DNA of 51,930 nt from a virus (taxonomy: Duplodnaviria; Caudoviricetes), in IMG/VR virus record IMGVR_UViG_3300043415_000095, positions 1 to 51,930 of that record; one strand, written 5' to 3'. Shown in pieces: positions 18,203 to 18,690 of the stretch. A program made the translations under genes and the position numbers. The notes beneath the pieces are model-generated. The model saw only the letters and a program-made list of their open reading frames with translations. It was not told the DNA's origin and did no database searches. Each line of letters starts with the position of its first letter. Positions within the stretch are counted from its first letter, which is position 1.

Positions 18203-18690
18203 GGGCCGGGGAATACCTTTTAACCAAGGGATTCAGAAACGACTCGGCCCGCCCCTTTTATGACCCGGACTTACTTATTTTTATTCATGGGTGGGTAGAT
18301 CAAGTCTGTTCCGGGTCACCCCTTGATGTTACCGAAGTTTGTTTCGGGAACATGCCTGAACCCCGCGCTGCACGGTATGCAGCCCCGCCGATGGGTTACT
18401 CGGATATGGGTGGGCGACAGAACATATCGTCCCCGGCGCTGTACCGGCACAGCCTACTGAAATTGGCGATGGGAATACAGACACGCCGCAGCGACTGGTA
18501 ATCGTGGGCGGCACCTATTTACGACACGGCGATGCTGAAAAGTGGAAGCATCCAGATACCCGCGATCCACGCGAGAGAGTCTGGCTTAGTCGGGTTAACG
18601 TCCGACCCGTGTCACCTATTTACGGAGCGGCGGAGGTTGGGGGTTCCCGGCTGTCGCCTGAGAAATCAGGCCCGCTCCACCCTATTTATT
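18203..18690 (+). ncRNA. Cluster of structured RNA units including a tRNA-like cloverleaf
   Basis: Five closing stems each followed by RCC and a U-rich linker; no convincing ORF. Confidence 0.6.

Follow-up and report, generated by a model that had tools for sequence, protein, structure and literature searches.

Tandem tRNA-like RNA modules in an early-region gap of a freshwater temperate phage and their possible processing by host RNase P

The window analysed here is the whole of a 51,930-base virus record (IMGVR_UViG_3300043415_000095); the sequencing run that holds most of it is labelled as a freshwater metagenome, and its carrier is a temperate phage of freshwater. Positions 18198-18703 (~506 nucleotides (nt), + strand) make up the sole long gap poor in open reading frames (ORFs) in the rightward early arm, and this gap is occupied by an array of five structured RNA elements, each closed by a stem that is followed by the trinucleotide RCC (R being A or G). 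On the 5' side of the array lie genes for a family A DNA polymerase, a VRR-NUC protein, an SNF2 helicase, two HNH-endonuclease-like ORFs and thyX (17378-17998), followed by a hydrophobic ORF of 44 amino acids (aa) taken from the ORF list (18063..18197, + strand), whose stop codon stands 5 nt 5' of element 1 and which matched no Pfam or PHROG family. Directly 3' of element 5, a Shine-Dalgarno sequence GAGGAG, a start codon (18704) and an 87-aa ORF follow (together 18692..18967, + strand), the ORF being assigned to phrog_1273, a family without assigned function in PHROGs. Further small ORFs, an excisionase-like helix-turn-helix protein, a phage attachment site (attP) core of tRNA-Cys type (~20141-20184) and a tyrosine integrase complete this side, placing the array ~1.5 kb from the xis-attP-int block. 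The early-arm genes flanking the array on either side are all on the + strand.

The five closing stems named in the initial annotation were recovered directly in the sequence, each with RCC behind it, as was the linker after the ACC of elements 3, 4 and 5 (TATTTAC, TATTTAC and C-TATTTAT). Element 1 (18203..18253, +) is an irregular hairpin closed by nine pairs, GGGCCGGG/CTCGGCCC (18203-18250), and ends in GCC, which is ACC in three homologues. Element 2 (18262..18320, +) is a long irregular hairpin with the stem GACCCGGA/TCCGGGTC (18262-18317) and a terminal ACC, replaced by GCC in two homologues. A variable insert (18323..18484, +) leads from this pair to the pair formed by elements 4 and 5; it is absent in the homologous locus L152, is replaced by an ORF in the loci L145 and L158, occurs in part in contigs of other runs, and folds no better than shuffles (z -0.70 and +0.71). 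Element 3 (18485..18515, +) is a short hairpin, GCCGC/GCGGC (18485-18512), followed by ACC; it is present in contigs of other runs, where its position is also taken by other simple hairpins ending in GGC-ACC-TA. The A/U-rich linker TATTTAC occupies 18516..18522 and 18617-18623 (+ strand), with C-TATTTAT at 18682-18690, and its length varies among homologues (TATTAC, TTATTTAC). The spacers between elements are A/U-rich, as in tRNA operons.

Element 4 (18523..18616, +) is a cloverleaf-like four-way junction, in which the stem GACACGG/CCGTGTC (18523-18613) is followed by A-CC. Its acceptor-like stem has 7 bp and its D-like arm a loop containing GG; a 5-bp stem stands at the anticodon position, where a 21-nt extension (a CGCG hairpin) replaces the anticodon loop, and after a variable region of 5 nt comes a T-like arm of 6 bp that abuts the acceptor 3' strand. 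Element 5 (18624..18681, +) is a three-way junction closed by GGAGCGG/CCGCTCC (18624-18678), again followed by A-CC; its 7-bp closing stem encloses two hairpins, one rich in G-U pairs with the loop GGUU and the other of 6 bp with the loop GAAA, the latter abutting the closing stem.

Each of these closing stems forms when its element is folded alone. On the + strand the folding energies were -20.7 kcal/mol (z -2.30) for element 1, -23.2 (z -2.85) for element 2, -13.7 (z -1.82, the weakest) for element 3, -36.5 (z -3.64) for element 4 and -32.8 (z -2.53) for element 5. Elements 1, 2 and 5 fold better by 4-8 kcal/mol on the + strand than on the opposite one, and element 4 folds equally on both. 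We also counted units consisting of a 7-bp stem with at most one G-U and at least four G-C pairs, spanning 25-110 nt and followed by RCC, a rule under which element 3 (5 bp) is not counted. Four distinct units lie in the ~506-nt region, compared with a mean of 0.31 in dinucleotide shuffles, four being reached by 1 of 300 shuffles. The + strand of the whole window holds 47 such units (~0.45 per 500 nt), and all other 500-nt bins contain three or fewer. Elsewhere in the early arm the units fall within ORFs of at least 60 aa or in gaps without an array, and none there reads as a comparable intergenic unit.

A gapped pattern of element 5 matched 21 loci in JGI metagenome contigs, of which three are true homologues (L145, L152 and L158); the other 18 were dropped as unrelated GC-rich chance matches, judged by their interior and flanks. 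Identity of the window modules to those of the three loci is 78-83% for elements 1 and 2 and 91-96% for elements 4 and 5. The arrangement differs from locus to locus. L152 carries elements 1, 2, 4 and 5 contiguously and, behind them, a homologue of the 87-aa ORF; in L145 a 124-aa ORF separates elements 2 and 4 and a different gene follows element 5; in L158 element 2 is missing, a truncated HNH-endonuclease ORF separates elements 1 and 4, and yet another gene follows element 5. L158 also belongs to a different phage type, with Erf and exonuclease VIII genes; the window has PolA and SNF2 genes. The order in L145 and L158 is thus gene, element 1 (with or without element 2), gene, elements 4-5, gene. 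The distance from an upstream stop codon to a module is 4-7 nt and that from a module to a Shine-Dalgarno sequence 5-10 nt; GAGGAG and ATG travel with element 5 and precede different genes. Four further sequencing runs, each belonging to a different study, have contigs with parts of the array, most frequently element 5. Joints in these contigs skip element 2 or element 4 exactly at the ACC-TATTT linkers, and element 5 stands behind at least three different upstream elements across contigs, counting loose ends. Since elements are skipped and recombined at linkers across phages, they are independent modules moving among phages.

Other small genes share this mobility or adjoin the array. The 74-aa ORF after the 87-aa gene (18958-19191) has ~91% DNA identity to two paralogous copies each in L145 (4253-4408 and 4576-4703) and L152 (897-1052 and 1220-1347); its product is a small W-rich protein module that travels with the RNA array. 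The adjacent ORFs of 89 aa and 225 aa (16438-17381) both align to one region (~191-257 of 617) of the profile of phrog_374, an HNH homing-endonuclease family, and may represent a tandem pair of HNH-type ORFs of which the 89-aa member is truncated. The L158 RNA array contains a homologue of the 89-aa ORF. Besides, L158 has a G-rich stretch of GGCAAGG/GGCAGG-type repeats directly 5' of its element 1 (~1385-1600, locus minus strand).

Wider searches returned no further arrays. There was no match to the array by blastn against 50,697 phage records, none in IMG/VR pattern scans with the 3' half of element 5, the element 4/element 5 junction or element 2, and none for a 20-nt stretch of element 4 scanned through one genome per prokaryotic species. 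BLAST of the region in five genomes of candidate host lineages gave short chance matches (best E 0.018). With R1 and R2, covariance models built for the module family, a search of 15 sources recovered only the four known copies plus matches in coding DNA at E of at least 0.15; R1 run over 64 genomes of the family of genome G003 gave two weak matches (E 0.15 and 0.23), neither an ARAGORN tRNA, which we treated as chance. Neighbouring genes did not lead to additional copies either. The 80 loci with ThyX homologues (at most 55% identity) had no similarity to the array, the 10 SNF2 helicase loci (at most 51%) had no match to 16.0-20.3 kb of the window and no called tRNAs, and none of the 49 loci with homologues of the 225-aa HNH-like protein matched the array by blastn. 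Two of the helicase loci (L086 and L091) show a weak integrase-like tblastx match ~500 nt past the helicase. For the 87-aa ORF, one weak viral locus and 129 proteins in a large collection were found.

The substitutions that separate the copies are informative about the folds. All 22 predicted pairs of element 5 are kept in every copy (100% paired), and all seven variable columns lie within helices; the changes comprise G-C to A-U and G-C to C-G (both double compensatory), one G-U to G-C and two to wobble. When five random substitutions were simulated under neutrality, the 22 pairs all stayed intact in 2.5% of cases and did so with at least two double-compensated pairs in 0.023%. The same three variant positions of element 5 recur in contigs of three runs, where they represent one allele and not independent events. 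Two pairs of the closing stem of element 1 (four sequences) and one pair of element 2 (three sequences) are changed on both sides. Element 4 has 27 pairs with 99.1% of cells paired and two one-sided wobble changes; it is nearly invariant, with 4 of 87 columns varying outside the tip of its extension and both length and sequence varying at the tip alone. The U-G pairs of element 5, conserved in all four copies, would be A-C mismatches on the opposite strand. By their anatomy and by comparison of the copies, the units of the array are real, conserved and strand-specific RNA structures.

We compared the region with known kinds of RNA and coding element. ARAGORN called no tRNA gene in the window, and with introns allowed and thresholds lowered it never called 18523-18616 (element 4). 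No family of Rfam 15 (4227 families) matched the window at its gathering score, and at E up to 10 the segment 17900-18900 gave two matches, both at chance level; the best Rfam score was that of freshwater-2, with 19.8 bits against a cut-off of 49.9. The possibility that a conserved ORF explains the region, which the initial annotation had named as grounds for abandoning its proposal, is contradicted by frame-breaking indels of 1, 2, 1, 1 and 4 nt among homologues within elements 4 and 5 and the linkers. A group I intron with a mobile ORF was rejected as well, there being no Rfam intron match at E up to 10 and flanking genes that differ among loci, each with its own stop or start codon. For a CsrA-type sponge, a retron RNA or CRISPR-like repeats there was neither an Rfam match nor a fitting anatomy. 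No promoter-like or terminator-like site was found inside the array, including a sigma-70 promoter in the linker.

The elements share features that bacterial RNase P recognises. RCC follows the closing stem in all 16 element copies (four of element 1, three of element 2, one of element 3 and four each of elements 4 and 5), varying only between A and G at the first position, and it stays while the neighbouring linkers vary in sequence and length. G stands at +1 in 16 of the 16 copies. The discriminator and the two following Cs of a precursor pair with G292, G293 and U294 in the P15 loop of bacterial RNase P RNA (RCC-GGU), and natural substrates other than tRNAs include the phage C4 antisense RNA, the phage M3 RNA and mRNAs (PMC11143913). 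Elements 4 and 5 each join the 7-bp closing stem to a 6-bp hairpin with no base between, giving a stack of 13 bp as compared with 12 in tRNA. Judged by their letters, these two elements combine the traits of an RNase P substrate (G+1, a stacked acceptor-type stem and an unpaired RCC), and elements 1-3 would be substrates of the hairpin type only. RNase P cleavage is predicted immediately 5' of 18203, 18262, 18485, 18523 and 18624.

The attachment site gives an indication of whose RNase P would be involved. The attP core (20141-20184; flanks 20100-20210) lies 3' of the excisionase-like gene and 5' of the integrase. It consists of one half of a tRNA-Cys gene, the 3' one, and contains the anticodon loop, T arm, acceptor strand, U73 and CCA. 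Counted with 16 further bases, it gives 44 nt identical to the tRNA-Cys of metagenome-assembled genomes mostly labelled Methylococcaceae or Methylococcus, and because of this identity the host is probably a freshwater methanotroph-type gammaproteobacterium. Junctions that resemble attR and have a similar phage arm occur in two further loci (L185 and L187). All four genomes with the 44-nt match (two labelled Methylococcaceae and two Pseudomonadota) encode an RNase P RNA of type A. The matching tRNA-Cys gene encodes CCA. In the phage modules CC is followed by C or U, element 1 of L158 (ACCA) being the exception, so that the 3' A would need to be supplied once trimming is complete.

We tentatively favour, at somewhat less than an even chance, the explanation that the modules are tRNA-like processing sites at which RNase P and RNase E of the host cut the early transcript. 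These portable modules mimicking tRNA ends would be transcribed within the rightward early operon and recognised through the G at +1, the closing stem of 7-9 bp and the unpaired R-C-C that pairs with the GGU of the P15 loop. RNase P would then cut the 5' side of each module and RNase E the UAUUUA-type spacer, and exonucleases would trim back to CC. The operon transcript may in this way be cut at the array, uncoupling the upstream and downstream cistrons; if the 5' cut alone takes place, the downstream message would start in a fully paired structure, and alternatively the modules would be released as small by-product RNAs. A tRNA-like fold directly flanking cistrons, a trait of t-elements and of tRNA punctuation, is seen here in the spacing of the modules and in the ORFs interleaved with them.

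Several observations weigh against this explanation. The T-like loops of elements 4 and 5 (UUAACG and GAAA) are not canonical T-loops, so the tRNA elbow read by the S-domain of RNase P may be missing. In elements 1 and 2 the U at -1 can pair with the discriminator (position 73), and in real pre-tRNAs a pairing between -1 and the discriminator disturbs the choice of cleavage site. One cut suffices for punctuation, yet four to five modules stand in tandem at one locus; this layout, with no such unit in any other early gap, looks more like a cluster of small-RNA genes. Folding of the whole region in one piece gives an unexceptional result for the + strand (z -1.36, matched by 12 of 100 shuffles) and a better score for the - strand (z -2.57). 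The comparison of copies comprises only 3-4 distinct sequences, and with 91-96% identity the modules exceed the shared coding DNA next to them (~91%) only slightly, so that conservation alone says little. As to the covariation suggested as a check in the initial annotation, double changes occur in elements 5, 1 and 2, and element 4 has none. The column-shuffle control for element 5, with three distinct sequences only, is weak, since 52 of 500 shuffles equal or surpass what was observed.

Some of these same observations suit a cluster of small, stable tRNA-mimic RNA genes that act in trans and are laid out like a phage tRNA gene cluster, which we regard as possible if rather doubtful. The RNAs would be excised by RNase P, trimmed at the 3' end and completed to ACCA by the CCA-adding enzyme, mRNA cutting being a side effect, and as protein-binding mimics or decoys they would engage, for instance, a host enzyme or a defence nuclease that recognises acceptor ends or the tRNA body. 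Four to five different tandem modules with A/U spacers at one locus resemble tRNA clusters, and no other gap of the early region has such units. The complete cloverleaf topology of element 4, with few variable columns (4 of 87), exceeds what a processing signal needs; element 5 moves independently, with three or more different elements found upstream of it; and element 1 of L158 encodes the full ACCA. The truncated HNH homing-endonuclease ORF inside the L158 array also fits, as homing endonucleases are located in T4-type tRNA clusters too. However, such a cluster would require a further partner or target, none of its elements is recognised as a tRNA by ARAGORN or as an Rfam family, proteins that read the tRNA elbow may not bind the non-canonical T-loops, and the high baseline identity of the shared DNA makes conservation of the loops uninformative so far. 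Processing and punctuation were ranked slightly above it because they need no such partner. A portable cassette of anticodon-less tRNA mimics, exchanged among freshwater temperate phages and matured by the tRNA machinery of the host (RNase P, 3' trimming and CCA addition) to stable ACCA RNAs that act in trans as decoys or sponges for tRNA-recognising host factors, seems to us unlikely; if it were true, tRNA-mimic decoys against defence enzymes that cleave tRNAs or modify their ends would constitute an RNA-only counter-defence invisible to protein-based screens. The predicted RNase P step would be common to punctuation and to a cluster of small tRNA-mimic RNAs, the two readings that remain.

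The remaining explanations dispense with this step or give its products another role. Structures of the 5' untranslated region or between cistrons could act in cis, independently of tRNA-processing enzymes, by stabilising mRNA, tuning translation or modifying the polymerase like antitermination RNAs; we think this improbable. It would agree with the position of elements 4-5, always directly 5' of a conserved Shine-Dalgarno sequence and ATG before different genes, and with the CUCC in the 3' strand of the element 5 stem, which is complementary to the Shine-Dalgarno sequence, so that GGAG/CUCC of the closing stem could trade places with the downstream GAGGAG. The modules also occur as stem-loop pairs, and the put RNAs of HK022 are paired stem-loops. 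Cis action leaves unexplained the invariant unpaired RCC and the G at +1 in 16 of 16 copies, as well as the same architecture in elements 1-3, which do not adjoin a ribosome-binding site; the distance from element 5 to the Shine-Dalgarno sequence differs by 4 nt among homologues, and no cis-regulatory Rfam family matched (the best, freshwater-2, being below its cut-off). That the sequences lack an RNA function, and are DNA-level linkers or boundaries for mosaic recombination or targets or remnants of homing endonucleases, is very unlikely. The shuffling of modules among unrelated backbones (PolA/SNF2 in the window, Erf/exonuclease VIII in L158), the joints at the ACC-TATTT linker and the HNH-endonuclease ORFs nearby speak for it, and the compensatory and wobble-only substitutions in helices, the strand-asymmetric fold, the conserved U-G pairs and the invariant RCC speak against it. 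Least probable, and disfavoured, are antisense immunity RNAs of C4/CI type, the main analogy drawn in the initial annotation, matured by RNase P and pairing through their loops with phage transcripts so as to block their translation or end transcription. In general shape element 5 resembles C4, having two hairpins and a closing stem with RCC on its 3' side, and the array lies ~1.5 kb from xis-attP-int. The C4 RNA is a substrate of RNase P (PMC11143913). Against this, the loops of element 5 are tetraloops (GGUU and GAAA) of 4 nt each, and the Rfam model of C4 was unmatched even at E up to 10. C4 has a family of its own in Rfam. Among the transcripts of the phage itself, the longest complement to the array was 11 nt for the + strand RNA and 12 nt for the - strand RNA, which is the level of 100 shuffled arrays (11-15 nt and 10-15 nt, respectively, mode 12). 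The initial annotation had proposed that host tRNA-processing enzymes cut the transcript into several small RNAs acting as antisense regulators or defence decoys; its processing part gains from the RNase P recognition features and their conservation, and its antisense part is not borne out, given the tetraloops and the lack of an above-chance target in the phage.

The window has further features apart from the array. DUF2800, of the PD-(D/E)XK-type nuclease family, is split across two overlapping ORFs (8355-9528), one corresponding to the first half of the Pfam model and the other to its second half. A similar division is seen in the DNA polymerase (11838-13882), where an ORF that PHROGs assigns to DNA polymerase, with a weak assignment to a polymerase exonuclease subunit as well, is overlapped by an ORF with the PolA domain. 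At 4025-4089, where a gap separates two leftward genes (MazG-like and VapE-like), a 7-bp stem is followed by ACC and a C/A-rich tail; as the genes there are on the opposite strand, it is probably a terminator-type hairpin outside the array family.

Among known systems, phage tRNA clusters that include stable RNAs, such as the T4 species 1 and 2 RNAs and the M3 RNA of phi80, share with the array a tandem arrangement of structured RNAs and A/U spacers, and would share their processing as well. The T4 species 1 and 2 RNAs are stable non-tRNA RNAs in the phage tRNA cluster whose function is not known. The window differs from such clusters in having no genuine tRNA called by ARAGORN, and the likeness to the T4 and phi80 RNAs is one of description only. 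Within the array, element 4 comes closest to a tRNA, with its 7-bp acceptor stem, D-like arm with GG, 5-bp stem at the anticodon position, 5-nt variable region, abutting T-like arm and discriminator A followed by CC. It departs from a tRNA in lacking a 7-nt anticodon loop, which the 21-nt extension replaces, and in having C at position 8, and its T-like loop does not fit the canonical T-loop. If the modules are stable tRNA mimics, they would be candidates for RNA-based interference with tRNA-directed host defences.

The C4 RNA of P1/P7 and the CI RNA of P4 are phage small RNAs cut from a longer transcript by RNase P by way of an acceptor-like stem with a CCA-type 3' end, P4 CI RNA being matured by RNase P in this manner, and a similar cut is proposed here. 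The array is unlike them in having no Rfam C4 match, loops too short for antisense pairing, no above-chance target in the phage and several dissimilar modules as against one RNA. The module family is absent from Rfam and can be searched for with the covariance models R1 and R2. Our full-text literature search, whose coverage left out most subscription journals, found no account of arrays of tRNA-like modules in phage operons, and a modular, horizontally exchanged array in phage early operons was likewise not found described. The principle of tRNA mimicry is itself known from organelles and from single phage RNAs (C4). The nearest parallel to the favoured processing explanation is offered by the t-elements of plant mitochondria and organellar tRNA punctuation (Forner et al. 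2007, PMC1920247). There too, according to that report, tRNA-like folds that are not tRNAs adjoin coding regions in multi-gene transcripts and are thought to recruit tRNA end-processing enzymes to form mRNA ends. Those t-elements are organellar and have mapped transcript ends, whereas the present modules belong to a phage in a bacterium, are known from sequence, stand two to five in tandem and have the RCC determinant of bacteria. Should RNase P and RNase E of the host indeed cut here, phages would shape their own messages by tRNA mimicry.

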